This document shows positions 1 to 43,711 of a DNA stretch of 64,000 nucleotides, piece after piece (position 1 is the first letter of the stretch; every line of letters begins with the position of its first letter). A program made the position numbers and the translations under genes. This stretch comes from an uncultured Pseudomonadota bacterium (GTDB lineage: Bacteria > UBA10199 > JACPAL01 > GCA-016699445): assembly GCA_964555055.1 (NCBI GenBank), contig CAZKQW010000004.1, forward strand, positions 145,674 to 209,673, read 5' to 3'. Under the pieces are notes generated by a model. The model had not been told where the DNA came from. It worked only from the letters and a program-made list of their open reading frames with translations, and did not search any database.

Positions 1-796
1 AGTGCCGACGGGTCCACGGAGTTTGTCCACGGCTTCCGAAATATTCATGTTAACCGTCGACTCTTCGTTGATTTGGACGATCTGATCTTTCGCGCGCACA
101 CCCGCCTTGAAGGCCGGCGTATCTTCAAGAGGGGAGATGACGGTGAGGACCCCTTGCCGGACTCCAATCACGATTCCGAGTCCGCCGAAATTTCCCTTCG
201 TCCCGATCTTGAATTCGTTATAATACTTCTTCGACATGTAATTCGTATGGGGATCCAGAGTTTCGGTCGCTCCCGTGAGGGCGATCGTCGTGCGGTCCTC
301 CTCGTCGGGCTTCCCTTGGTAGTATTGATTCACGAATCCTAAGATATGCGAAATAGGCATCGCCATGTCGCTGATGCGGAAGCTTAGATCGACGGGAATA
401 CTGAGTTTCTTGTCTCCGAGGCTCAAATCGAAGCTCTTCTGGCTTTCTTTGACGAGAAGAGGGGGAAGCGCTCTCTCCAAATTTTTGGAGGCTTTCCTCA
501 GGATGTCGAGGGGATTCACCATGGACGCATCGACGTAATTCTCCTCCATCAGCTGCATGATCCGACTGATCATCTTCGAATCTTTGGAAGGAGGGATGGA
601 TTGGATGCTGACCGGAATGTCTTTTTTCAGTTTAAGCGAAAAATAAAGTAGGACGGTAAGAACGGGCAAGATGAAGAGCAGCTTTTTCAAAGGATGGTGC
701 GAGCTGATCTGAAAGGAGCGGTGGTTTTTATGGCGGGACATCTTGCCAGCATGTCTGCCGCTCTGAGGTTTATCAAGAGAAAGTTTATTGGAGACC
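1..796 (-). CDS. C-terminal processing (tail-specific) peptidase, S41 family, N-terminal part with PDZ domain; gene continues beyond window start
   Basis: Minus-strand translation from ATG at 796 gives MVSNKLSLDKPQSGRHAGKMSRHKNHRSF..., then a TM segment and the PDZ-like 'GGLGIVIGVRQGVLTVISPLEDTPAFKAGVRAKDQIVQINEEST'. Open to the window edge, so not in the ORF track. Alternative start ATG at about 741. Confidence 0.6.
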
Positions 797-868
797 ATGG
801 CGTGGTCTTTTTGCCGACAACACTTGTTTTTTCGTGAATATTTTAAAATTTATAATTAATATAGCACG

Positions 869-8433: not shown

Positions 8434-11400
8434 ATGAAAAAAAATAAATTGTGGTTGATTTCGATAGGAGTAGTTCTCTTAACGGGACTTTCAGTTTTTT
8501 ATCATTTGACTCGAACCTCAACCGTCAGTCGGTTGTCAGAAGGGAATGTAGAGACGCTCCCGTTGGAAGCTCAATTTGTTGTATCTGAAACTTTAGGGAA
8601 AAGTCAGAAGGTGTATCAGGCCAAAAAAAATAACGACCATTATGTTTTCTTAAATCCCTCCCAATCCCTTGAAATGCGTTTTGACGGAAACGGGGCTCTG
8701 GTGAAAACGAAACAGGGGACATGGGGACTCTCTTGGGTCGCTCAACAAAACTCTTTGGGTGGGAGCTCTCTAACTCCTTCTTTTCGAGTAGAACAAAACC
8801 GTGTGACTTATGATCACGGAAGCATTGAAGAGTGGTACGTCAACGGACCCTATGGGATACAACAAGGTTTTACTCTTAAGAAAAAAAGGTCTGAGGATGG
8901 AAATCGAGTCACTCTTCGTTTGAAAGAAGTGGGGAATTTAAAAGGGTATTTAGAAAATGGCACGTTGAAAGTCACTCCTAGTGCGAAGCAGGAAAGTAAT
9001 AAAAGCGAGGTTATTACTTACGGAGGACTTTATGCGTATGATGCCCAAGGCAAAAGCCTTCCCGTTTGGATGGAAAAAGAATCAGATCATCTCCTGATTC
9101 ATGCGGAAACTTTAGGTGCGGATTATCCGATCGTGATCGACCCTTTTATAAGACAAGCGCGGGCTTTGACTTCTTATCAGGGTTTTTTTGCTGGTCATGT
9201 AAATAATATTTTCGGTTGGTCCACGGCTTTGAGTGGAAATCGCATGGTCATTGGTGCGCCTTACCAAAACGTTGGTTCTAATGTAAGGCAGGGTGCTGCG
9301 TATGTTTTTTCGCGTTTAGGTACAAGTTGGGTTCAAGAGGCGGTATTAATTGCCGGTGATGGTGCTGCTGGAGATATATTTGGTGCGGCAGTGGGGATAG
9401 ATGGGGATCGGATCGTTGTGGCAGCGCCTTATAATGATATAGGTAGTCATCCCAATCAGGGAGCTGTCTATTTTTTCAGCTTTTCCTCCGTAAGCGAAGC
9501 TTGGTCACAGGAGCAAAAAATAGTCACTTCGAATGGTATGTCGAATGATAACCTAGGTTATTTTTCCGAGCCCACGAGAACCCTCGTCATTGAAGGGGAC
9601 ACGCTTGTTGTAGGCTCCTTAACGGCGAATGGGGGTCGAGGAGCTGTATATGTTTTTAATTATTCGATCCCCTCTTTGTGGACTCAACAACAAGAACTTA
9701 CGGCGATCGATGGGAATGTAGGTGATTTTTTTGGTAGTGCTATTGCGTTGAGCGGCAATATGATCATTGTTGGGGCTTACGGGGATGATATCGGTAGCGT
9801 AGCAAATCAGGGGGCTGCTTACGTTTTTACCCGCCTTAACCCTACTGCTGAGTGGCAGTTAGTCGAACGACTTACAGCGAATGATGGCTCTAGCGATGAT
9901 AACTTTGGTTTTGCTGTGGCTGCTTCTGGAAATCGCGTTGTTATTGGCGCTCCCAATAAAGCTGTTGGGATGAACTATAGCCAGGGCGCTATCTATGTTT
10001 TTACATTAACAGGTTCGACATGGAGCCAGGTACGCATTGTAGCGGAACGTGGGAGTACTAATGAGCTATTAGGCAGATCTATATCTTTTAATGGGTTGCG
10101 GATATTAGGTGGGGCTCGAGGAATTAGTGATAGATCCTATCGGGATGTAGGGGGTGGTTATCTATTTTCTCTCGTAGGGAGCTCATGGCTACAAGTGCAA
10201 AAGCTGACTATTAATGAGAGCCGTAATACTGCTTGGTATGGGGATAGTGTTGCGCTCGATGGTGATTATCTCTTATTAGCAACTGGTCAGGTGCCTAAGA
10301 TTTATGTATTCCACCGCTCTTCCGACACAACGCCTTCTTGGACTCAGCAACAACAAGTTAAAACTATAGGGGGAGCACAAGGGGATCAATTCGGTTACTC
10401 TGTTTCTGCCACCTCGGATCGTATTGTTGTAGGAGCTCCTTATCAAGACAAAGACGGTAATATGGACCAAGGCGCTGCATTCGTGTTTCTTAAGTCTCCT
10501 ACTACGAATCAGTGGTCTCAGGAACAGGCTCTATTCGCCTTTGACGGTGCCGCGGGAGACCATTTCGGAAGCTCTGTCGCTATGAATGCTAACGGTAATA
10601 AGATCGCCATTGGAGCGCCTGATGTGGATGCTAGACGTGGGCCGGGACAAGGGGCGGCTTATATATTTGTGAGATCCCTCACAAGCCCTCCTTGGAGTGA
10701 GGAGCAAAAGCTTGTCGGTTCTGCAACCGAGGCAGGGGATCATTTTGGTTCTTCCATTTCCATGAATAATGAACCCTCCGTTAATGAGCGTGTTATTGTC
10801 GGCGTTCCTATGGATGATGTGGGGGCAACGGTTGATCAAGGTTCTGTTTATACGTTTTTTTATTCCGCTTTTGACACGCCTTCATGGTCTGAAGAACAAC
10901 AATTGATCGCAGATGACGGCGCGACTCGTTCGCATTTTGGTCACTCTGTCTCTCTTAATGGAGATCGAGTTATTGTCGGTGCTCCCGATCATCGCGTGGG
11001 CACTAATGATGCACAGGGTAAAGCTTACGTATTCTCCTTCTCGTCCACTAGATGGGCCCTTGAGCAAGCATTGACCGCGAATAACGGGCTCTCCAATGAT
11101 CAGTTTGGTTCTGCGGTGTCTATCCACGGAGATGGCTTGGTTGTTGGAGCTCCAGGTCGTGCAAGAGACCCTTCGCATAATTATGAGGGAGCTGCTTATA
11201 TTTTTTCACATTCCCCTTCAGCCCCGTCCCCTTGGAGCCAAGAGATATATTTAACACCTTCAGACAGTGGTGATACTCACGGTTTCGGCAAGTCTGTTTC
11301 CATTCATGGGGATATCGCCCTTGTAGGGGCTCCTACCCATTCAATAGGAAGTACGGTTGCTAGGGAAGGTTCTGCTTACCTATTTTTTATAAATGGTTCT

Positions 11401-11949
11401 AATTGGACAGAAGAACTCCTAACCTCTGTTAGGGCTAATGGTGCAGAGTTTGGATCTTCCGTAGCTATCAGTGGAGGTACAGCCGTTGTAGGGATACCCC
11501 TCGACGATGCAGGGATTGCCTCTTTAACAGATCGTGGTTCTGTGGATGTTTTTTTAGTATCGGCTTCTCCTATCATTACTTCTTCAGGTGGAAGCGGCGG
11601 CTCAGGTGGCACAGGAGGTGCTGAAGTGGGTGGCAGTGGTGGTTCGGAAACGGGAGGGAGTGGTGGCACGGGAGGTGCTGAAGTGGGTGGCAGTGGTGGT
11701 TCGGAAATTGGAGGGAGTGGTGGCACTAGTGAAGGTTCGGGTGGAACTTCAGGTTCTGGCGGAGACACAGGCGTAATTGGTGGTGGTGTGAGCGGGATTT
11801 CAGGAGGAGGCGGATCTAATGCTTCCGGTGGAGTTTCGGGAGCCAGTGGCATTGGTGGTGGTGATGTGAATCCTGGTGCAGGGGATGGCGCCACTGAGAG
11901 TAGCGGGGGATGTTCCTGCCATGTGACACCGGATAGTGAACTGAAATAA
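8434..11949 (+). CDS. giant secreted FG-GAP (integrin-alpha-like beta-propeller) repeat protein with Gly/Ser-rich C-terminal linker and terminal 'SSGGCSCHV' motif
   Basis: ATG at 8434 with AGGAG 8 nt upstream (the ORF track's GTG at 8401 is less likely). Signal/TM MKKNKLWLISIGVVLLTGLSVF. At least 12 repeats of 'FGxSVAxxGxxxxxGAP....QGAAYVF'. Tail GGSGGTGGAEVGGSGGSE x2 ... GGGDVNPGAGDGATESSGGCSCHVTPDSELK. Confidence 0.8.
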   Translation: MKKNKLWLISIGVVLLTGLSVFYHLTRTSTVSRLSEGNVETLPLEAQFVVSETLGKSQKVYQAKKNNDHYVFLNPSQSLEMRFDGNGALVKTKQGTWGLSWVAQQNSLGGSSLTPSFRVEQNRVTYDHGSIEEWYVNGPYGIQQGFTLKKKRSEDGNRVTLRLKEVGNLKGYLENGTLKVTPSAKQESNKSEVITYGGLYAYDAQGKSLPVWMEKESDHLLIHAETLGADYPIVIDPFIRQARALTSYQGFFAGHVNNIFGWSTALSGNRMVIGAPYQNVGSNVRQGAAYVFSRLGTSWVQEAVLIAGDGAAGDIFGAAVGIDGDRIVVAAPYNDIGSHPNQGAVYFFSFSSVSEAWSQEQKIVTSNGMSNDNLGYFSEPTRTLVIEGDTLVVGSLTANGGRGAVYVFNYSIPSLWTQQQELTAIDGNVGDFFGSAIALSGNMIIVGAYGDDIGSVANQGAAYVFTRLNPTAEWQLVERLTANDGSSDDNFGFAVAASGNRVVIGAPNKAVGMNYSQGAIYVFTLTGSTWSQVRIVAERGSTNELLGRSISFNGLRILGGARGISDRSYRDVGGGYLFSLVGSSWLQVQKLTINESRNTAWYGDSVALDGDYLLLATGQVPKIYVFHRSSDTTPSWTQQQQVKTIGGAQGDQFGYSVSATSDRIVVGAPYQDKDGNMDQGAAFVFLKSPTTNQWSQEQALFAFDGAAGDHFGSSVAMNANGNKIAIGAPDVDARRGPGQGAAYIFVRSLTSPPWSEEQKLVGSATEAGDHFGSSISMNNEPSVNERVIVGVPMDDVGATVDQGSVYTFFYSAFDTPSWSEEQQLIADDGATRSHFGHSVSLNGDRVIVGAPDHRVGTNDAQGKAYVFSFSSTRWALEQALTANNGLSNDQFGSAVSIHGDGLVVGAPGRARDPSHNYEGAAYIFSHSPSAPSPWSQEIYLTPSDSGDTHGFGKSVSIHGDIALVGAPTHSIGSTVAREGSAYLFFINGSNWTEELLTSVRANGAEFGSSVAISGGTAVVGIPLDDAGIASLTDRGSVDVFLVSASPIITSSGGSGGSGGTGGAEVGGSGGSETGGSGGTGGAEVGGSGGSEIGGSGGTSEGSGGTSGSGGDTGVIGGGVSGISGGGGSNASGGVSGASGIGGGDVNPGAGDGATESSGGCSCHVTPDSELK
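11605..11718 (+). repeat. 57-nt tandem repeat x2 (plus partial third unit) encoding GGTGGAEVGGSGGSE[T/I]GGS within the gene-1 linker
   Basis: Units start at 11605, 11662 and 11719; near-identical DNA. Confidence 0.8.
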
Positions 11950-11962
11950 AAAAGGTAAAGGT

Positions 11963-14900
11963 ATGAGAAAAAATCCGATTTATTTTTGTATAAAATTCTT
12001 GCTCTTTTTGTTTTTAGTTTGCTTTTTAACTCCAAACTCCAAAAGTTTTGCTGCGAACTTCGTTGTGACCGACCCTACAGATTCTATCCAATGTTCTAAC
12101 CCCATGACGAATTGTTCTCTTCGAGGAGCGATTCGCCTCATCAACGGCGGGACGGATGTGAACAATACCATCACATTAAACGGGCAGACGTTCGTCTTGG
12201 ACCTTTCAGGGACCGCCGCGGACGACAATAACGCGACCGGCGATTTGGACATCGTGGCTCCGGGACGGAGAGTGAGTATCGTCGGGGCGGGATGGGGTTT
12301 GACGCGTCTTTCCGTTTCGCCTACGGCAAGGTTGCGTGATCGAGCATTGCACGTCGTGGGGGGGGAAGTATCCTTGCGGAATTTAAGTATCGTAGGTGGA
12401 TGGACACGAGGAAATGGAGGGGCGATTTACGTCAACGCCGGAGGCACATTAATCCTGAATCAGGTGCAATTGGCGAACAACCACAGTGAAAACGGTTGCG
12501 GCGGCGCCATTTTCAATTCCGGCGTGTTAAACGTCTCGGAAGTCTCCATTGCTTCCAATACCGTGGGAAGAGAAACCGGCAATTTTACCGGCTATACTGG
12601 AGGTTCTTGGTTCGAGAGCGGAGGATTAGGGCCGGATACGCGAGGCTATTTCGAAGACCCTTCCAACGGAGGCGCTATTTGTAATAGCGGTTCGGTGGCG
12701 CGGGCTACGGTCACGAATACCACCATGAATGGAAATACGGCGCTGCGCTACGGAGGCGCGATCTATAACGAGCGTGGCGCCGTGATGGATCTTACGAATG
12801 TCACGATCAGCGGAAACACAGCGGCCGGCAGGTATTGGCGTAACGATGATGGGAATGATTTGAGCATCAGGGTCGGCCAAGGCGGCGGTATTTTCAACTC
12901 CTCGACGCTCAACGTCTTGAACGCCACCATTATCAATAACCAAGCTTCAGTCTCCGGAGGAGGAATACATAACGGCGCGGTAGCACTTCGCTCGAGCGAT
13001 AACCAAGCCGGTACGACGGCCCAAGGGTCCGGCGCCTTTGCCATCAGGAACAGCATTTTACAGCATAATATACTGACGAGGTCAGGAGATCCCGGGGAAA
13101 ATTGCGGCGCCTCTAATAACAGAAACGACGTCATCCTCACAACCTTAGGTAATAATATTTCAGACGACAATACGTGTACTGGCGTTTTTACTTTAGAACG
13201 GAACGATATGAGCAATATCACCGTTCCTCTTTCCGACTTAGATGTTCACCATGGAGGGCCCAATATCCTGTACCTTCACCACTTATTAGGTGGGCGCATG
13301 GTCCCGAACCCGGCTTTTGATACGGTGACATATAACCCTGAGTCTTGCCCACCTACCGACGGTAGAACATTTAGCCGGCCTCTATCCGCCCGTTGCGATG
13401 TTGGGGCTTTCGAGGCTGATCGAGTCATGGGAGCTTCGAATCCGTTTTTATCCGGACGCGAACTGAGCTTTGGCTTGCCCCTCGCCGTGGGAACCACGAG
13501 ACAAAGGACTTTGATCATTAGTTCCATTGCTTCTGGGATTATACAATCCTCTATGGAAAATCTCCTTCGTTCGGTTCAAGTGACGGGCTCTGACGCTTCA
13601 TTGTTTACGGTTAGCTCTACGGATCCGGATTGCATGGGCTCTCAATTGTCCTCTACTACTCCGTGCAGCCTTGTGATTACTTTCGCTCCGAACTCACAGG
13701 GCACTAAGAGGGCGCGTTTGACCGTTGCTTCTAACGCCGTCAACACCGTCGATAATCTTTTTACGATCGATCTCGTGGGTGTGGCGAATGCCGTGACGAC
13801 GCCGACATCTCCTCCCTTGGGTGAAAGCGTTTATTTCAGCGCGGACGAGATGAGCTTCGTTTCGCCCGTCGGCGGTTCGACGTCCCAAACCGTCACCGTG
13901 GAGAATATTTCGCCCGATCCCATTGCTGTTGATTTCGTGGTTTATTCCGGCGCCGGCTTTTCGGTGGTTTCGACCTGTAGCTCGACCGAGCCCTTGAGAG
14001 CGGCGACGCGACAAAGTCAGTTCAATCCTCTGACGAGGGAGACTTATTATTACTACACGGGTGGCGGTACCTGCACCGCGACCATCAGCTTCGCTCCCAG
14101 AGATACAATGCCGGTGAGAGGAAATGCTAGTTTCGATATACGTAGGGGCTCCGAAGGTCCCATCAGGAGGACGATGACGTTAAATGGACAAGGAGTGGAA
14201 TCCAATATCGTTCTTGAAGGTGCTCCAAGCTCCCAGATGCAGTTCGGTAATGTGATGTTGGGAAGGCCTGTAAGCTTGGGGTTGACCATAAGAAACACAG
14301 GACAGAGGGATTTGAGTCTTTCTAGAATTGCTTTGGCTCCAGAATCTGATCCGGCTTTTTCCGTGAACAATCCTTGCGTTCCTTCTTTAGTTCCTAATGG
14401 CTCTTGCCAAGCAACTATCACTTTCAGGCCTAGTGCCCTAAGGGCTTATGAAGCTCGTTTGGCTATCGAGAGTAATGATCCTGATTCACCGACAATGTCG
14501 GTCAACTTGATCGGTCAAGGCGTGGCGGGCGTCATTATGACTCTTCAGGATCATGACGTGACAGGCTCTCCGGGCGGTACCGTCGAGGTAAGATTGACTA
14601 TCGAAAGAAGCGGTTTCGTCGAGGCGATACCCGTCACTTTAGAGGGAGGAAGTCTTTTCACCGCGGATGAATTGATCATCCCCGCGGTCGATACTTTGCC
14701 TACGGCGCCTATCGCTTACAACCGCAGCTTGGTTATCCGTATTCCTTCCAATATCGGAGCAGGAGTCAGCTATGGTTTAGCAGTTGATGCCAGGGTCAGC
14801 GATATGATTTCTGCGCAAAGGGATAACGTCACGGTCCATATTGTGGAAGCGACAGCAGGAGGGTCCGGCGGTAGTGGAGGTTCCAGCGACGGTTCTGGAG

Positions 14901-15220
14901 GAAGCGGCGGCTCGAGTGACGGTTCCGGAGGCTCTCCTTCGGGAAGTGGAGGGGAAACGGCGGGGTCCGGCGGCAGCGAGCCGGGAACGGGTGGAAGCTC
15001 GGAAGGGACCGGGGGAGGCGTTCCGGGAGGTGCGGGGACGGGCGGCGCTGAAGCAGGTAGCGGTGGCGACGTCGGCGGACCCGTCGGCGGTGGCAGCGGC
15101 GTCTCGGGTGCCGGAGGGGCAGGAGGCGCTGGTGGCGGAGACGTCAATCCAGGCGAAGGTCCCGGAGCCGACGGCAGCAGCGGCGGGTGTTCTTGCCGCG
15201 TGATATCAGAAGCGCCTTAA
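11963..15220 (+). CDS. giant secreted protein: CSLREA N-terminal motif + right-handed parallel beta-helix repeats + Ig-like/choice-of-anchor-type domains + Gly/Ser-rich linker + terminal 'SSGGCSCRV' motif
   Basis: Signal peptide, 'TNCSLRGAIRLINGG' (CSLREA-type). Repeated 'GGAIYN..G...NVTIsGN' beta-helix turns. C-terminal GS-rich tail ...GGGDVNPGEGPGADGSSGGCSCRVISEAP. Confidence 0.8.
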   Translation: MRKNPIYFCIKFLLFLFLVCFLTPNSKSFAANFVVTDPTDSIQCSNPMTNCSLRGAIRLINGGTDVNNTITLNGQTFVLDLSGTAADDNNATGDLDIVAPGRRVSIVGAGWGLTRLSVSPTARLRDRALHVVGGEVSLRNLSIVGGWTRGNGGAIYVNAGGTLILNQVQLANNHSENGCGGAIFNSGVLNVSEVSIASNTVGRETGNFTGYTGGSWFESGGLGPDTRGYFEDPSNGGAICNSGSVARATVTNTTMNGNTALRYGGAIYNERGAVMDLTNVTISGNTAAGRYWRNDDGNDLSIRVGQGGGIFNSSTLNVLNATIINNQASVSGGGIHNGAVALRSSDNQAGTTAQGSGAFAIRNSILQHNILTRSGDPGENCGASNNRNDVILTTLGNNISDDNTCTGVFTLERNDMSNITVPLSDLDVHHGGPNILYLHHLLGGRMVPNPAFDTVTYNPESCPPTDGRTFSRPLSARCDVGAFEADRVMGASNPFLSGRELSFGLPLAVGTTRQRTLIISSIASGIIQSSMENLLRSVQVTGSDASLFTVSSTDPDCMGSQLSSTTPCSLVITFAPNSQGTKRARLTVASNAVNTVDNLFTIDLVGVANAVTTPTSPPLGESVYFSADEMSFVSPVGGSTSQTVTVENISPDPIAVDFVVYSGAGFSVVSTCSSTEPLRAATRQSQFNPLTRETYYYYTGGGTCTATISFAPRDTMPVRGNASFDIRRGSEGPIRRTMTLNGQGVESNIVLEGAPSSQMQFGNVMLGRPVSLGLTIRNTGQRDLSLSRIALAPESDPAFSVNNPCVPSLVPNGSCQATITFRPSALRAYEARLAIESNDPDSPTMSVNLIGQGVAGVIMTLQDHDVTGSPGGTVEVRLTIERSGFVEAIPVTLEGGSLFTADELIIPAVDTLPTAPIAYNRSLVIRIPSNIGAGVSYGLAVDARVSDMISAQRDNVTVHIVEATAGGSGGSGGSSDGSGGSGGSSDGSGGSPSGSGGETAGSGGSEPGTGGSSEGTGGGVPGGAGTGGAEAGSGGDVGGPVGGGSGVSGAGGAGGAGGGDVNPGEGPGADGSSGGCSCRVISEAP

Positions 15221-15376
15221 ATGACGTCGAGTGTAAATGAGAAAGGTGCCCGGATCCTTTTCCGGGAGCCTTTTGTATTTTTGGGCTTTAGGGGGAAAAG
15301 TGTTTCGCCGTTAGGGTTCTTATCAGTAGTGTCAACGCTTTTCATTAAAGACGGGTCGATAAACTGGAGAATCCCT

Positions 15377-18310
15377 ATGAAGAACTTCTCATCACGTTTC
15401 TTCGCATTAAGCCTCATGGCCATTTTTCTGTTTTCTTTACGAGCGTTCGCCGATTTGAATCGTTGGAGCGCGATCGGCCCTGGGGGAGGTCAGGTGACCG
15501 CTCTCGTTTCCACCAGCCCTACGGAGTTTTACGCCGGAACGGCGACCGCGGGGGTTTGGAGGGGAACGGTCGATGGCATCGGTGCTGTCTCCTGGCGAAA
15601 CGTAAACGGGACCGGAGAGGATTCCTTAGGGGACATCTTCAATGAGAAAGCGAGAAGGATCCAAGCCTTGAAAGTCAGCGGCGGCGTTATTTTCGTGGGG
15701 ACGGAAACCGATGGTGTCTGGAGGGGGGCCGTCAGGATCGATGGGACGGTCGCCTGGAGTCCTCTCAATGGGACGGGAATGAGTCGATTAGGCGGCGCTC
15801 CGTCGGGTAGCGCTTATAACGTACGCGCCTTGGAAATCTCGGGTTCGACGGTTTACGCCGGAACGAGCAACGGTGTCTGGAAAGGGGTTCTCGCGAGCTC
15901 CGACGGGCAAGTGAACGCGGTTTGGAGTCCTTTCAACGGATCGGGCGTCACAGCCTTGCCCGCGTCTGCTGGCATTAAAGTTCTACTGCTTTCCGGGTCC
16001 GTCCTCTTTGCGGGCTTAAATAATACCCTGCCGGATGGTTTGGGGGGAGGCGTTTGGAGAGGGACGATTTCTGAAACGGACGGTGTTTCAGATATTCAAT
16101 GGAGGGATTTTAACGGAACGTCTGGGGGCGCCTCGTTAGGATTAGATGGTCGTGAACCTTTGGCGCGCTATGTCAACGATTTAGCTCTGTATGAAGTGGA
16201 AGGGCTCGGGGAATTTCTTTTCGTTGCGACTAATGGCGCGGGCGTTTGGACTTCTTACTCTGACCCACCGGCTGCCTGGGGTTTGCTGACCTCCGGGCCG
16301 GCCCGATTGAATAATACGGATCGTGTCGTCGTGCGTTCCATTAAAACCCTTAGAACGGGTCCCACGACGCATTTATACGCGGCGACAGAAGGGGTCGGTA
16401 TTTGGAAATGCAATCTCAGTGCTTTGGGAACCACGCAGATCACACCTTGGTCCGCGGCCAATGGAGGATCCGGTGCGATCTTAGGAGGCAGGAACGGCTC
16501 TTCGGCTTTTTACGGGAACGTTTTGTCGGTCAACGGAGCGGAAGTCGTCGCCGGCACTGGCGCCGGAGTCTGGAAAGGGACGCCGCAGCCTTCCGGGGAT
16601 ATGAACTGGAGCGATTGGAACGGTTCCGCAACATCTCCACTTTTGGCCCATAACGTCACTTCCGTCGCTACGGCCGGCTCCAGGGTTTATGTGGGAACGG
16701 ATTCGGGAGTCTGGAAAGGAACGCGAGACTCCGATGACCATTATACGTGGACCGAATTTAACGGTTCCAGCACGGCCACCACCACGACCGTCTTGGGGGG
16801 ATTCGTCAATACTTTAGGTGTCCCTGTGAGTTTTCTGGGTGGCAGACAGGTGAAGTCGATCGTTTTCGACGGCGACGACTTAGGTTCGGATTTGTATGTG
16901 GCCACACAAAATATGGGTGTTTGGAGGGGACGAATCACGGGCTCCGAGGATTCCGAGAGCGTGTCATGGAGCGATTTCAACGGATCTTCGCCATCCGATT
17001 CCCTAAACGGCGACGATAATCGGTTCAAGCCCATCGTCTCCTCGTTGACGTCTTCGTCCTCCGCGGACGGCCGCGTTCTTTATGCGGGTTTGATAGGCAT
17101 CGATAGCGGCACCGTCTGGAGGAGGAATCTGGCTTCCGGAGGATGGCAAAGCCTTTGGTCGTCAAGGCATGCCGTAAGATCCCTGAACGTGGCGTTGCCC
17201 AATTTGTACGTCGGTCATGACGGTGGGATCAGACGGGTTTTATTAGGAACTGGAGCTACTTTTGATTTCAACGGGGAAAGCTCTACATCCTTGATGGCCG
17301 TCGGAAATCTTAACGCGCTTCACGTGAGAAGTCTTTTGTCGGAAGGTGGAACGCTGTATGCGGCCACGGAAGCCGGGATTTTTAAAGGCACCGTTGCGAC
17401 GGCGGAGGACGGCGTCATGAGCGTTCAGTGGACGAACGGTAATGGACCGGGCCTCTCCGACTATTTGGACGGAACTGTGAGGGCGAAAAGCAGTTCCTTG
17501 GCTTATCTACGTAACCGCTTATACGTGGGGGCTATGGCGGGAGGCGTATGGAAAGGGGATGAGGCCGGAGGGATCCGGTGGAGCGATGCGAATGACGGAT
17601 TGCCTTATGTCAGCGTCAATTATTTAGGGCTTTCCGCGGACCGCGCTTCCATCCTCGCGGGAACAGGCCATTCCTTGTTTCAATTCACGCCAGGCGCCTT
17701 CTGCGGCAACAGTCTCGTGGAATCCGGAGAGACCTGCGACGACGGTAATACTGTTACCACGGACGCGTGCCCCAGATGCCAGCGGGCGCGTTGTGGAGAC
17801 GGGTTTACACGCATGGATATTACGGATCCTACCCATCCCGCCTACGAACAATGCGATTCCGGTACGAACTGCGATAGTCAGTGTCGTTTAATCGTAGGTG
17901 CTGGCGGTATTTCTGGAAGCGGATCCGGCGGAGAGTCGGGAGGCTCTGGAGGGACTTCGGAGGAGGGTACGGGTGGCGCTCCCGATGGCATGGCTACTGG
18001 AGGGGGGGCAGAACCTTCTACAGGCGGAACATCAGGGGACTCGGGTAGCGGTGGGGATGATGCGGGTACGGGGGGAGGCGCTCCCGGAGGTATCGAAACC
18101 GGTGGCGTTCCTGGCGAAGAGTCGGGGATAGGCGGCGCTGAAGAAGGTAGTGCTGGCGACATCGGAGGCCCTGTCGGCGGTGGTAGCGGCGTCTCGGGTG
18201 CCGGAGGGGCAGGAGGCGCTGGTGGCGGAGACGTCAATCCAGGCGAAGGGCCCGGAGCTGACGGCAGCAGCGGCGGTTGCTCCTGTCATGTGACGCCTGA
18301 GATGTATTAG
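15377..18310 (+). CDS. giant secreted repeat protein: about 13 'GT..GVW[RK]G ... W..[FL]NG[ST]' propeller-like repeats + Myxococcus-type cysteine-rich repeat + Gly/Ser-rich linker + terminal 'SSGGCSCHV' motif
   Basis: ATG at 15377 with GGAGAA RBS and signal peptide MKNFSSRFFALSLMAIFLFSLRAFA. The ORF-track start 15221 lacks an RBS or signal. 'CGNSLVESGETCDDGNTVTTDACPRCQRARCGDGF...EQCDSGTNCDSQC' resembles the Myxococcus cysteine-rich repeat. Tail ...GGGDVNPGEGPGADGSSGGCSCHVTPEMY. Confidence 0.8.
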   Translation: MKNFSSRFFALSLMAIFLFSLRAFADLNRWSAIGPGGGQVTALVSTSPTEFYAGTATAGVWRGTVDGIGAVSWRNVNGTGEDSLGDIFNEKARRIQALKVSGGVIFVGTETDGVWRGAVRIDGTVAWSPLNGTGMSRLGGAPSGSAYNVRALEISGSTVYAGTSNGVWKGVLASSDGQVNAVWSPFNGSGVTALPASAGIKVLLLSGSVLFAGLNNTLPDGLGGGVWRGTISETDGVSDIQWRDFNGTSGGASLGLDGREPLARYVNDLALYEVEGLGEFLFVATNGAGVWTSYSDPPAAWGLLTSGPARLNNTDRVVVRSIKTLRTGPTTHLYAATEGVGIWKCNLSALGTTQITPWSAANGGSGAILGGRNGSSAFYGNVLSVNGAEVVAGTGAGVWKGTPQPSGDMNWSDWNGSATSPLLAHNVTSVATAGSRVYVGTDSGVWKGTRDSDDHYTWTEFNGSSTATTTTVLGGFVNTLGVPVSFLGGRQVKSIVFDGDDLGSDLYVATQNMGVWRGRITGSEDSESVSWSDFNGSSPSDSLNGDDNRFKPIVSSLTSSSSADGRVLYAGLIGIDSGTVWRRNLASGGWQSLWSSRHAVRSLNVALPNLYVGHDGGIRRVLLGTGATFDFNGESSTSLMAVGNLNALHVRSLLSEGGTLYAATEAGIFKGTVATAEDGVMSVQWTNGNGPGLSDYLDGTVRAKSSSLAYLRNRLYVGAMAGGVWKGDEAGGIRWSDANDGLPYVSVNYLGLSADRASILAGTGHSLFQFTPGAFCGNSLVESGETCDDGNTVTTDACPRCQRARCGDGFTRMDITDPTHPAYEQCDSGTNCDSQCRLIVGAGGISGSGSGGESGGSGGTSEEGTGGAPDGMATGGGAEPSTGGTSGDSGSGGDDAGTGGGAPGGIETGGVPGEESGIGGAEEGSAGDIGGPVGGGSGVSGAGGAGGAGGGDVNPGEGPGADGSSGGCSCHVTPEMY

Positions 18311-18336
18311 GCTTCATAAAACGGAAAAAGGAAAAA

Positions 18337-18365
18337 GGCGCCCGGGAGACCGGGTGCCTTTTTTG
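18337..18365. terminator. bidirectional Rho-independent terminator (GGCGCCCGG-gaga-CCGGGTGCC + T-run) between convergent genes
   Basis: 9-bp GC stem with one G-U, followed by TTTTTTGCT. The reverse strand also has a T-rich tract. Confidence 0.6.

Positions 18366-26574: not shown

Positions 26575-27765
<1,191 letters not shown>

Positions 27766-42520: not shown

Positions 42521-43711
<1,191 letters not shown>

Follow-up and report, generated by a model that had tools for sequence, protein, structure and literature searches.

A cysteine-containing C-terminal tail shared by three adjacent, otherwise unrelated exported proteins, with signs of recent recombination in its DNA

The window, that is, the whole stretch of 64,000 nucleotides that was analysed, carries three adjacent genes on the same strand (g1, g2 and g3), the products of which are adhesin-like, have unrelated passenger domains and each start with an N-terminal signal peptide (such as MKNFSSRFFALSLMAIFLFSLRAFA/D in the translations).

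8434-11949, + strand: g1 (ORF; Pfam), Sec-exported, 1171 aa, with 13 FG-GAP repeats, a Gly/Ser linker and the Cys tail
11605-11726, + strand: 57-nt tandem duplication in the Gly/Ser linker of g1 (2.1 copies, 95% matches)
11857-11949, + strand: tail of g1, GGDVNPGAGDGATESSGGCSCHVTPDSELK, then stop, the motif part being 11857-11931
11963-15220, + strand: g2, Sec-exported, 1085 aa, with a PMP-type beta-helix, choice-of-anchor Q and D domains, a Gly/Ser linker and the Cys tail
15241-15280, + strand: intrinsic terminator after g2, stem 15249-15266 and a T run (fold z = -3.7)
15377-18310, + strand: g3, Sec-exported, 977 aa, with a propeller-like body of GVW(K/R)G repeats, a Cys-rich repeat (myxo_disulf_rpt/DUF4215), a Gly/Ser linker and the Cys tail
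18331-18364, + strand: terminator after g3 (fold z = -4.2), of the same design as the one 3' of P0022, the g2 orthologue of a relative (see below)

Pfam FG-GAP_2 matches g1 in 13 stretches (E = 9e-153), and the only two Cys among its 1171 residues are both in the CSC of the tail. The start of g2, which is the singleton protein P0020 on the NCBI contig of 210,597 bp, lies 13 nt past the g1 stop. g3 is a BNR-like propeller, the sole distant homologue found for it having BNR/Sortilin-type domains. The passenger families choice-of-anchor D/Q, FG-GAP and myxo_disulf_rpt are typical of C-terminally anchored surface proteins. All three proteins end in the same kind of module: a Gly/Ser-rich linker of 130-140 aa, long and disordered and directly preceding the Cys, then GGDVNPGxGxGAxxSSGGCSC[HR]V, 5-7 residues and the stop. 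The spacing from GGDVNPG to CSC is identical in all three tails, which end 7-9 residues past the second Cys of CSC; the residues that follow CSC are HVTPEMY, RVISEAP and HVTPDSELK.

A repeat search of the window placed the tail-encoding DNA of g2 and g3 in a 171-nt direct repeat (15033-15203 and 18123-18293, spacing 3090).

15033-15203, + strand: copy A of the 171-nt shared tail block, in g2 (repeat search, ungapped comparison)
15095-15159, + strand: 65-nt exact core of copy A, a putative recent conversion patch (codon and permutation analysis)
18123-18293, + strand: copy B of the 171-nt shared tail block, in g3 (repeat search, ungapped comparison)
18185-18249, + strand: 65-nt exact core of copy B (ungapped comparison)

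Ungapped comparison of the two copies gives 153/171 identical nucleotides (89.5%), in agreement with the preliminary description, which had put the identity at about 90% over about 180 nt. The perfect run that it reported was also seen, but its length of 62 nt has to be corrected: the longest exact run begins 3 nt earlier and spans 65 nt (15095-15159 = 18185-18249), with flanks that are identical at 52/62 (84%) and 36/44 (82%) positions. The edges of the block are sharp at 15033 and 15203, and outside it, in the same register, identity is 13-43% in 30-nt windows. As had been stated, both tails encode the same peptide (41 aa in common, GGPVGGGSGVSGAGGAGGAGGGDVNPGEGPGADGSSGGCSC) and the rest of the genes lacks similarity: BLASTP of g2 against g3 aligns the tails (57/67, E = 6e-10), while the next best match has E = 8.9. 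The term 'paralogues' used there is wrong for g1, g2 and g3, the homology being limited to the tails. Between g1 and g3, BLASTP similarity is likewise confined to the tail (19/24).

The tail of g1 shares 65-68% nucleotide identity with those of g2 and g3. Compared to g3, 21/25 residues are identical, and 15 of the 21 codons for these identical residues (71%) are synonymously different, in line with the earlier view that g1 encodes the same motif with diverged codons. The fact that 21/25 residues are kept between tails that are synonymously saturated implies that the peptide is constrained. The orthologue of g2, P0022, lies at the syntenic locus of the metagenome-assembled genome (MAG) CP064976.1, where it is the single tailed gene. 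Its body shares 38% identity with g2; its 37-aa tail matches g3 at 27/37 residues (73%) and g2 at 22/37, and terminates, as g3 does, in SSGGCSCHVTPEMY. The terminators of g3 and P0022 both consist of an A-tract, a stem, a 4-nt loop and a U-tract, and the changes in the stem are paired. For comparison, identity between housekeeping genes of the source genome and of CP064976.1 ranges from 69 to 90%, and their synonymous differences amount to 0.49-0.62 per identical-residue codon. GGCSC is present in the tails of g1, g2, g3 and P0022; GGDVNPG is common to g1, g2 and g3 and absent from P0022. Judged by the tail of P0022, which is far better kept than the body, and by the agreement of g1 with g3 despite saturation, the tail peptide is very probably held by purifying selection, as expected of the functionally constrained tag that had been suggested. 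The notion of an exchangeable cassette also stands, as the tail is carried by three unrelated passenger architectures and the CP064976.1 locus has only the g2 orthologue.

Identity of the 65-nt core goes beyond what peptide constraint alone would give, because the chance of 21 consecutive identical codons, drawn independently from the codon usage of the window, is P = 10^-11.5; the core is identical even at four-fold degenerate sites. In the g2/g3 codon table, the differing codons (12 synonymous and 6 non-synonymous) all fall outside 15095-15157. Among the 52 identical-residue codons, synonymous differences amount to 0/21 in the core vs 12/31 in the flanks, or ~0.39 per identical-residue codon in the latter. 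The clustering of the differences has a permutation P of 0.009 for codons and 0.002 for nucleotides, from two copies only, so that P = 0.009 is of modest significance. Within the genome the tails are closer than between orthologues (32/37 residues for g2/g3, 22/37 for g2/P0022), which is also compatible with a duplication after speciation. That all synonymous differences lie outside the core points to an older module common to both genes, within which a short patch has recently recombined. The recent gene conversion or module shuffling proposed from the sequence at the outset thus gains support both from the codon probability and from the clustered differences. We infer that the 171-nt block of g2 and g3 is very probably identical by descent. 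The tail module would have been copied between g2 and g3, 3,090 bp apart, and a later short-patch gene conversion (of at most 65 nt) would have wiped the synonymous differences from the core. Copying of DNA between g2 and g3 is an ordinary process; it is the tail that is undescribed.

The window also contains two tuf genes, which are identical at 1190/1191 positions and have flanks with ~28% identity. The pair matches the classic tufA/tufB pattern, and homogenisation of dispersed repeats therefore appears to occur in this genome. Gene conversion of tufA/tufB and the concerted evolution of dispersed bacterial repeats are established knowledge.

Conversion between pre-existing tails and a single recent transfer of the tail are not fully separable. 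In the latter case g3 (or g2) would have taken its whole linker-tail end from its neighbour by duplication or fusion, and the perfect 65-nt core would be due to the luck of where later mutations fell, without a separate conversion. The sharp edges of the block suit such a transfer, and so does the presence of only the g2 orthologue at the syntenic CP064976.1 locus, which implies that the gain or the retention of g3 with its tail postdates the split; moreover, the tail and terminator of g3 resemble those of the orthologue more than the g2 ones do, which suggests that an ancestral 3' end was kept while the array was rebuilt around it. We nevertheless consider a single transfer unlikely, as the differences are significantly clustered and the flanks, at 0.39, lie only a little below the between-genome range of 0.49-0.62, whereas not one of the 21 core codons differs. 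A core kept identical by selection at the nucleic-acid level, be it for an RNA structure or for a site of regulation or binding, would suit the perfect identity at four-fold degenerate sites, yet it is hardly credible here: the fold of the core is not significant (z = -1.6, with 14/200 shuffles folding equally well), the tails have no Rfam match, the only Rfam matches being at the g3 terminator, and the tails of g1 and CP064976.1 encode the motif with different codons.

An assembly collapse had been named at the outset as the refuting case. Such an artefact of assembly or polishing, in which the two tails would really be more different, or a single sequence, and read mis-mapping or consensus polishing in the metagenome had made the 65-nt identity, might be suspected in a MAG contig with G-rich, low-complexity, error-prone DNA, the more so in a window with two identical tuf copies, which assemblers often mishandle. 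However, the repeat of 65 nt is shorter than a read, and the flank differences are mostly synonymous and keep the frame, as errors would not. In addition, an independent assembly (SRR12487045) contains Logan contig L001, which matches g3 without a difference over the 200 nt compared and starts at 18220; the first position at which g2 and g3 differ, 18250, comes 30 nt after this contig end. With the Logan k of 31, this end lies k-1 = 30 nt inside the shared core, which is the break expected at a branch point if both the g2 and the g3 branch occur in the reads. The independent contig thus argues against an artefact, albeit as indirect support, and we regard this explanation as very unlikely.

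A tail of a related kind, shorter and without a membrane helix, is found on the M10-like metallopeptidase encoded upstream (gene 1465-2814).

2755-2814, + strand: tail of the M10-like metallopeptidase, PGCSLAPLKSGEPAVFPQK, then stop

Its CP064976.1 orthologue ends in SGGGCSLIQERF, then stop, so that [S/G]GCSL, followed by 6-15 variable residues, closes the secreted protease as well as its orthologue; no frameshift that could hide a membrane helix was found after these tails. The protease tail is possibly a wider member of the g1-g3 tag, a link that rests on a 4-residue motif. The protease was also considered as a 'myxosortase-dependent metalloprotease' and rejected, because the match, with 21-24 bits where the cut-off is 250, is limited to the 20 residues of the zinc-binding HExxH stretch. 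Only four of the 250 stop-to-stop segments of the window carry a G-G-C-S-[C/L]-type motif within the final 30 residues, each of them in a signal-peptide protein.

Outside the window the tail is rare. SSGGCSCHVTP has 1 site, in CP064976.1, among 185,579 species genomes, and GGCSCHVTP[DE] has no match in JGI metagenome contigs. The strict DNA pattern DVNPG...GGCSC gave no match in genomes or metagenomes; it is too specific, because GGDVNPG is missing from the CP064976.1 relative. Protein searches with the tail only gave no matches and full-length g3 gave one weak match, but the same searches also missed g1 and g2, which are present in the collection; since a local tail profile scores 68-75 bits on the window's own proteins, these nulls were not counted as absence. 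Exact look-ups of g1, g2, g3 and the inositol monophosphatase returned no record, which for g1 and g2 reflects the index or the choice of start codon, both being in the collection. A recognised sorting signal is usually found on many proteins of a genome; the present tail looks like a very narrowly distributed, undescribed tag.

To our knowledge, all catalogued prokaryotic C-terminal sorting signals are tripartite, with a signature, a membrane helix and a basic cluster; they include LPXTG, PEP-CTERM, PGF-CTERM, GlyGly-CTERM, MYXO-CTERM and Cys-containing relatives. The tails of g1-g3 depart from this plan. Over the last 45 aa, the Kyte-Doolittle mean of 15 residues peaks at 0.4-0.5, compared with 2.1-2.7 in true tripartite tails; the final 8 aa of g2 and P0022 hold 0-1 basic residues, and the g1 tail has a single one, its terminal Lys. 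No NCBIfam or Pfam model touches the tail, full-length or tail-only, even at E <= 10, and the MYXO-CTERM HMM does not match any of the four tails at E <= 10, whereas the P0035 tail, taken as a control, exceeds the MYXO-CTERM cut-offs with 28.0 and 25.7 bits. Neither an HMM match nor the tripartite architecture of T9SS Por_Secre_tail, PEP-CTERM, LPXTG, GlyGly-CTERM or JDVT-CTERM was found in g1-g3, and a scan of non-ribosomal ORFs in the 64-kb window showed no gene of the CPBP/myxosortase type. Homologues of g2 do carry such ends at the equivalent position: P0035, P0048 and P0131 have GGGCSS, a transmembrane segment (TM) and RRRRR and match the MYXO-CTERM models, others show T9SS-type ends, and P0112, a full-length homologue with 34% identity, has SSSCSLS, TM and RRK. 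A neighbour of P0112 in GCA_964470915.1 has a tripartite tail with AGGCGL; P0112 itself was rejected as a syntenic orthologue of g2, its locus being unrelated.

Three further readings of the tails were discarded: (i) a membrane helix hidden by frameshift or readthrough, as what lies downstream is terminator hairpins or the signal peptide of the next gene; (ii) a heme CXXCH-like or His-requiring metal site, as g2 has Arg at that position; and (iii) a viral 2A-like or dockerin-like sense of GDVNPG, as this motif is not conserved in P0022.

Signals of the MYXO-CTERM type are modelled as being held in the inner membrane by the helix of the precursor; lipidation is believed to take place at the Cys, and the peptide beyond it to be cleaved off. 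This established route of retention, lipidation and cleavage cannot apply to the present tails, which have no helix or basic cluster past the Cys, and since the membrane helix and Arg cluster are absent, processing cannot be exactly that of the myxosortase pathway. We propose, on the strength of sequence comparisons, that the tail may be a lineage-specific C-terminal tag for surface display. The essential element would be a Cys set within G-G-C-S-[C/L] at the tip of a flexible stalk, as a functional counterpart of the GCGC signature of MYXO-CTERM. Taken as a whole, the explanation that joins a block shared by descent, a later conversion patch and a surface-display tag is the best at hand, and we lean towards it by a little.

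The Cys-x-Cys on its Gly-rich stalk could instead be a disulfide or metal site that links g1, g2 and g3 into a covalent surface complex. Three tandem genes with identical spacing from GGDVNPG to CSC, a g1 without any other Cys and the lack of a membrane segment for lipidation by the known route would all suit such a complex. We think it improbable, however, as only one tailed gene occurs at this locus in the relative, the protease tails have one Cys only, and the His after CSC is not invariant (g2 has Arg). Returning to surface display, the tails could, as a tentative and rather doubtful extension, stand for a new class of C-terminal surface-sorting tag, with a MYXO-CTERM-like G-G-C-S-[C/L] signature lacking the helix and Arg cluster, that spreads between unrelated genes as a recombining 3' cassette (linker, tail and terminator). 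If this were true, it would imply a different, possibly periplasmic, machinery of recognition, lipidation or trimming. A sorting tag of this kind would mean that a Cys signature can be read in another way than via a helix, and its four to six proteins in genomes of ~2.7 Mb would make a small, defined system in which to seek the Cys-modifying enzyme. The DNA result offers a clean, small example of tag movement, a 171-nt module with a fresh 65-nt patch in otherwise unrelated genes. For annotation it matters that such tails break short-read assemblies and escape current models.

Among known systems, MYXO-CTERM (NCBIfam TIGR03901.2 / TIGR03382) has one invariant Cys, often with a second, non-adjacent Cys nearby (GCGC), is preceded by a disordered region, is processed by the myxosortase MrtX and is exported by the T2SS (Haft 2023, 10.1101/2023.06.07.544157; PMC11980579). 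The tails of g1-g3 resemble it in standing at the extreme C-terminus of Sec-exported adhesin-like proteins after a disordered low-complexity region, in the Gly-rich surroundings of the invariant Cys, which another Cys follows at a distance of two residues (GGCSC here, often GCGC in MYXO-CTERM), and in their partners (choice-of-anchor D, FG-GAP and the Myxococcus Cys-rich repeat). They differ in having no transmembrane helix or Arg-rich cluster, with only 7-9 polar residues past the second Cys, and in their host, an uncultured 'Deltaproteobacteria bacterium' lineage of ~41-50% GC that is not among recognised Myxococcota or Bradymonadales. Other tripartite signals with Cys (JDVT-CTERM, Synerg-CTERM, CGP-CTERM, P0112 and its neighbour) likewise have an invariant Cys after a Ser/Gly-rich stretch, but then continue into a hydrophobic helix and an RRK/KRK cluster where the g1-g3 tails stop. 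g2 has both domains of the 'choice-of-anchor' proteins (NCBIfam NF012200, NF041518), and among its homologues the C-terminal anchors vary as the name suggests, with T9SS, MYXO-CTERM-like and further tripartite tails; the putative anchor of g2 is absent from curated catalogues.

With respect to the DNA, conversion of the tufA/tufB type is likewise a non-reciprocal homogenisation of same-strand copies on one chromosome with abrupt edges of identity, whereas the substrate in g2 and g3 is only a 171-nt module in otherwise unrelated genes, and the perfect patch of 65 nt is near the lower limit for homologous recombination. Conceptually, the precedent that comes closest to a Cys tag lacking a membrane helix is the eukaryotic/archaeal CAAX system (Rce1 family), which also has a Cys near the C-terminus and a short dispensable peptide; CAAX proteins, however, are cytoplasmic, with the Cys exactly four from the end, whereas proteins of the g1-g3 type are exported and have 7-15 residues past the last Cys.

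The + strand of the window carries three large ORFs arranged head to tail; g2 starts 13 nt past the stop of g1, and the 156-nt spacer between g2 and g3 contains a terminator.

Features of the gene array
8434-11949, +: g1, ORF of 1171 aa with 13 FG-GAP repeats
11963-15220, +: g2, ORF of 1085 aa with a PMP-type beta-helix and choice-of-anchor Q and D domains
15377-18310, +: g3, ORF of 977 aa with a repeated propeller-like body and one Myxococcus-type Cys-rich repeat
15033-15203 and 18123-18293, +: 171-nt direct repeat found by repeat search, 89% identity, spacing 3,090
15095-15159 = 18185-18249, +: 65-nt longest exact run (the core), from base-by-base comparison
about 15241-15280: terminator after g2, of similar stem sequence (GCCCGG...CCGGG)
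18331-18364: terminator after g3, of the same design as that after the g2 orthologue of CP064976.1 (13058-13090 of that locus), with paired stem changes

All three proteins (3/3) have a typical Sec signal peptide at the N-terminus and end in the motif GGDVNPGxGxGAxxSSGGCSC[HR]V, which is preceded by a Gly/Ser-rich low-complexity stretch of 130-140 aa and followed by 5-7 residues and the stop. A search of the window with the tail written as a degenerate DNA pattern gave three sites, those of g1, g2 and g3, against none in 100 shuffles. By BLASTP, g3 resembles g2 (57/67, E = 6e-10) and g1 (19/24) in the tail only, and the domain contents of the three proteins are unrelated to one another. Judged by sequence, g1, g2 and g3 are therefore not the paralogues that a preliminary description took them for, rather three different passengers with one common module; its statements that the rest of g2 and g3 shares no similarity and that the tail is an exchangeable cassette are both in line with this. 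Slippage appears to lengthen the linkers: that of g1 contains a 57-nt tandem duplication (11605-11726, 2.1 copies, 95% matches), and in that of g2 GGSGGSGGSSDGS is repeated at the peptide level.

The homogenisation of the g2 and g3 tails at the DNA level, proposed earlier, is borne out by the 171-nt block, in which 153/171 bases are identical; the perfect identity reported as 62 nt is present, its actual length being 65 nt. The flanks of this core are 84% and 82% identical, whereas outside the block, in the same register, identity is 13-43%. Constraint on the peptide does not account for the core, since the probability of all 21 core codons matching if drawn independently from the window codon usage is 10^-11.5, and the g1 tail shows the result of constraint alone: as already described, it encodes the same motif with diverged codons, 21/25 residues being identical to those of g3 with 15 of these 21 codons synonymously different, and its nucleotide identity is only 65-68%. 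The core RNA fold is not significant (z = -1.6), and an Rfam scan matched only the g3 terminator and nothing in the tails. Among the 52 codons of the block with the same residue 12 differ synonymously, none of them within the 21-codon core, a clustering that has a permutation P of 0.009 for codons and of 0.002 at the nucleotide level. In the core flanks the synonymous differences per identical-residue codon amount to 0.39, which is not far below the 0.49-0.62 found between this genome and its relative CP064976.1. The simplest reading of these sequences is an older module common to g2 and g3 in which a short patch, 65 nt long at most, has recently been replaced by recombination. Recombination between short modules is a known process, and the identity beyond constraint and the clustering of differences outside the core support the recent gene conversion or module shuffling suggested beforehand.

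An assembly artefact was weighed against a real repeat. Ribosomal and other window proteins are recorded on the NCBI contig of 210,597 bp and, again, in Logan assemblies made from SRR12487045 and DRR685533; JGI/IMG data contain the EF-Tu and L1 sequences as well, with EF-Tu located on a contig from JGI metagenome 3300045354. Downstream of g3 the window is matched by a Logan contig of SRR12487045 (L001), whose position 1 corresponds to window position 18220, inside the core and exactly 30 nt before the first g3/g2 difference (18250). A unitig of k = 31, which we take to be the Logan value, must stop where the reads hold both continuations, and the break of L001 at this point provides independent, though indirect, support for the g2/g3 repeat being real. 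Moreover, the two copies differ in frame and mostly at synonymous positions, a pattern that errors would not give. g1 and g2 are recorded on the NCBI contig only and not in the Logan assemblies. Tail-bearing genes are systematically fragmented in k-mer assemblies, which may hide the tail family from metagenome protein catalogues.

The window has an internal parallel. Its two EF-Tu (tuf) genes (26575-27765 and 42521-43711) are identical at 1190/1191 nt, the single difference being in the final base of the stop codon, while their 200-nt flanks are 25-30% identical (about 28%). The classic tuf pattern, usually put down to gene conversion, is of this type, and by analogy the pair parallels the tail homogenisation. 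In other assemblies tuf stands alone on contigs of 1.2-1.5 kb, as expected of a collapsed repeat.

An exhaustive HMMER search with g2 gave three informative proteins: P0020 (g2 itself), P0022, a full-length relative with 39% identity, and P0112 (34%). P0022 (QQR80859.1) is encoded in CP064976.1, a complete 2.75-Mb MAG of a 'Deltaproteobacteria bacterium', at a locus (L006) syntenic with the window in the order S41 peptidase, hypothetical protein, M10-like protease, FtsK, LolA, ComF-like, TPR, g2 orthologue, TrpC, porin, tRNA synthetase, PyrF and SpoU; neither g1 nor g3 was found at this locus. Several conserved genes of L006 (6134-8366 and 19058-19593) are called split or shortened relative to the window (PyrF and ComF-like each in two pieces, LolA 105 vs 199 aa, FtsK 657 vs 814 aa), probably by indel errors of long-read assembly, so single-gene details from CP064976.1 need caution. 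P0022 ends in GGAGGSAGDSVPPDIGPHADASSGGCSCHVTPEMY, the last 14 residues being identical to those of g3. Over the 37-residue tail, P0022 is 73% identical to g3 and 59% to g2, whereas the g2 body is only 38% identical to it; housekeeping proteins of the two genomes are 69-90% identical. In these sequences the tail is thus far better conserved than its carrier, which, together with the residues kept between g1 and g3 despite synonymous change, upholds the earlier claim of functional constraint. Since the terminators after g3 and P0022 share their design with paired stem changes, the 3' end of the array (tail plus terminator) may be ancestral, with g3 inserted upstream in front of it; the last seven codons of g2 and its terminator differ from this g3/P0022 3' end. 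GGDVNPG, common to the three window tails and lacking in P0022, would fit concerted evolution as well as a duplication that postdates the split.

The strict tail form appears confined to this lineage, because SSGGCSCHVTP has one site in 185,579 species-representative genomes, that of P0022, the DVNPG...GGCSC DNA pattern matched nothing in genomes or JGI metagenome contigs, and GGCSCHVTP[DE] nothing in the latter. The window contains 250 stop-to-stop segments of 80 aa or more; a search of their last 30 residues found a [GS]C[GS][CL]-type motif in only four, all signal-peptide proteins: g1, g2, g3 and an M10-like protease.

M10-like proteases with a short Cys tail
1465-2814 (tail 2755-2814): secreted M10-like metalloprotease, ending in TSATSPGCSLAPLKSGEPAVFPQK, tail SPGCSLAPLKSGEPAVFPQK
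L006 2089-3375 (CP064976.1): its orthologue, ending in TTTSGGGCSLIQERF, tail SGGGCSLIQERF

Beyond the Cys the two tails have nothing in common in sequence or length, and neither has a membrane helix in any frame. The motif is short, and we regard the protease as a lead: the C-terminal tag of g1, g2 and g3 may, in a wider sense, extend to it.

From N- to C-terminus g1, g2 and g3 combine a signal peptide, an adhesin-like passenger, a long flexible stalk and, at the end, a conserved Cys motif, which by analogy is how surface proteins with a C-terminal anchor are built. Among the 150 best g2 homologues many end in T9SS-type domains and several in tripartite Cys signals (GGGCSS, a helix and RRRRR); P0035, one with a GGGCSS tail, was scanned and matches MYXO-CTERM models. 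The neighbour of P0112 and P0112 itself, adjoining secreted proteins of GCA_964470915.1 (7571-9715 and 10001-12991 of locus L008), have tripartite tails in which AGGCGL and SSSCSLS, respectively, run into a helix and a basic cluster (KRK/RRK). NCBIfam sorting-domain models did not match these two tails even at E <= 10; the tails may represent a tripartite Cys signal that is missing from the catalogues and is related to the tails of the window.

A specific role of the CSC residues is indicated by g1, whose only two Cys in 1171 residues are both in this motif. A rival, less likely reading is that the tail Cys form intermolecular disulfides or metal bridges among the g1, g2 and g3 proteins. The reading we propose is a putative Cys-dependent surface-tethering tag, which would work like the signature part of MYXO-CTERM. 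As a speculative candidate for the machinery, by position only, we note a PDZ/S41 C-terminal processing peptidase (window 1-867, - strand; L006 1-1384) at the edge of the syntenic block, about 7 kb upstream, conserved in both genomes and oriented divergently to the pair of genes for the hypothetical protein and the M10-like protease; no other enzyme that recognises C-termini was seen nearby.

In MYXO-CTERM one Cys is invariant, another often lies close by without adjoining it (GCGC), and a disordered region precedes them; the Cys is proposed to receive a lipid before the distal helix is cut off by myxosortase and the protein is exported through the T2SS (Haft, 10.1101/2023.06.07.544157; PMC11980579). 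The tails of g1, g2 and g3 match this Cys signature and its context; however, they have neither the helix (hydropathy maximum 0.4-0.5 vs > 2 in true tripartite tails) nor the basic cluster, and no MYXO-CTERM HMM hits them at a cut-off as loose as E <= 10, at which a control tail is hit. For these reasons we place the proposed tag outside the MYXO-CTERM family. The kind of signal is already known; the tail itself, as read from two uncultured genomes, is an undescribed variant of it that has no membrane helix.
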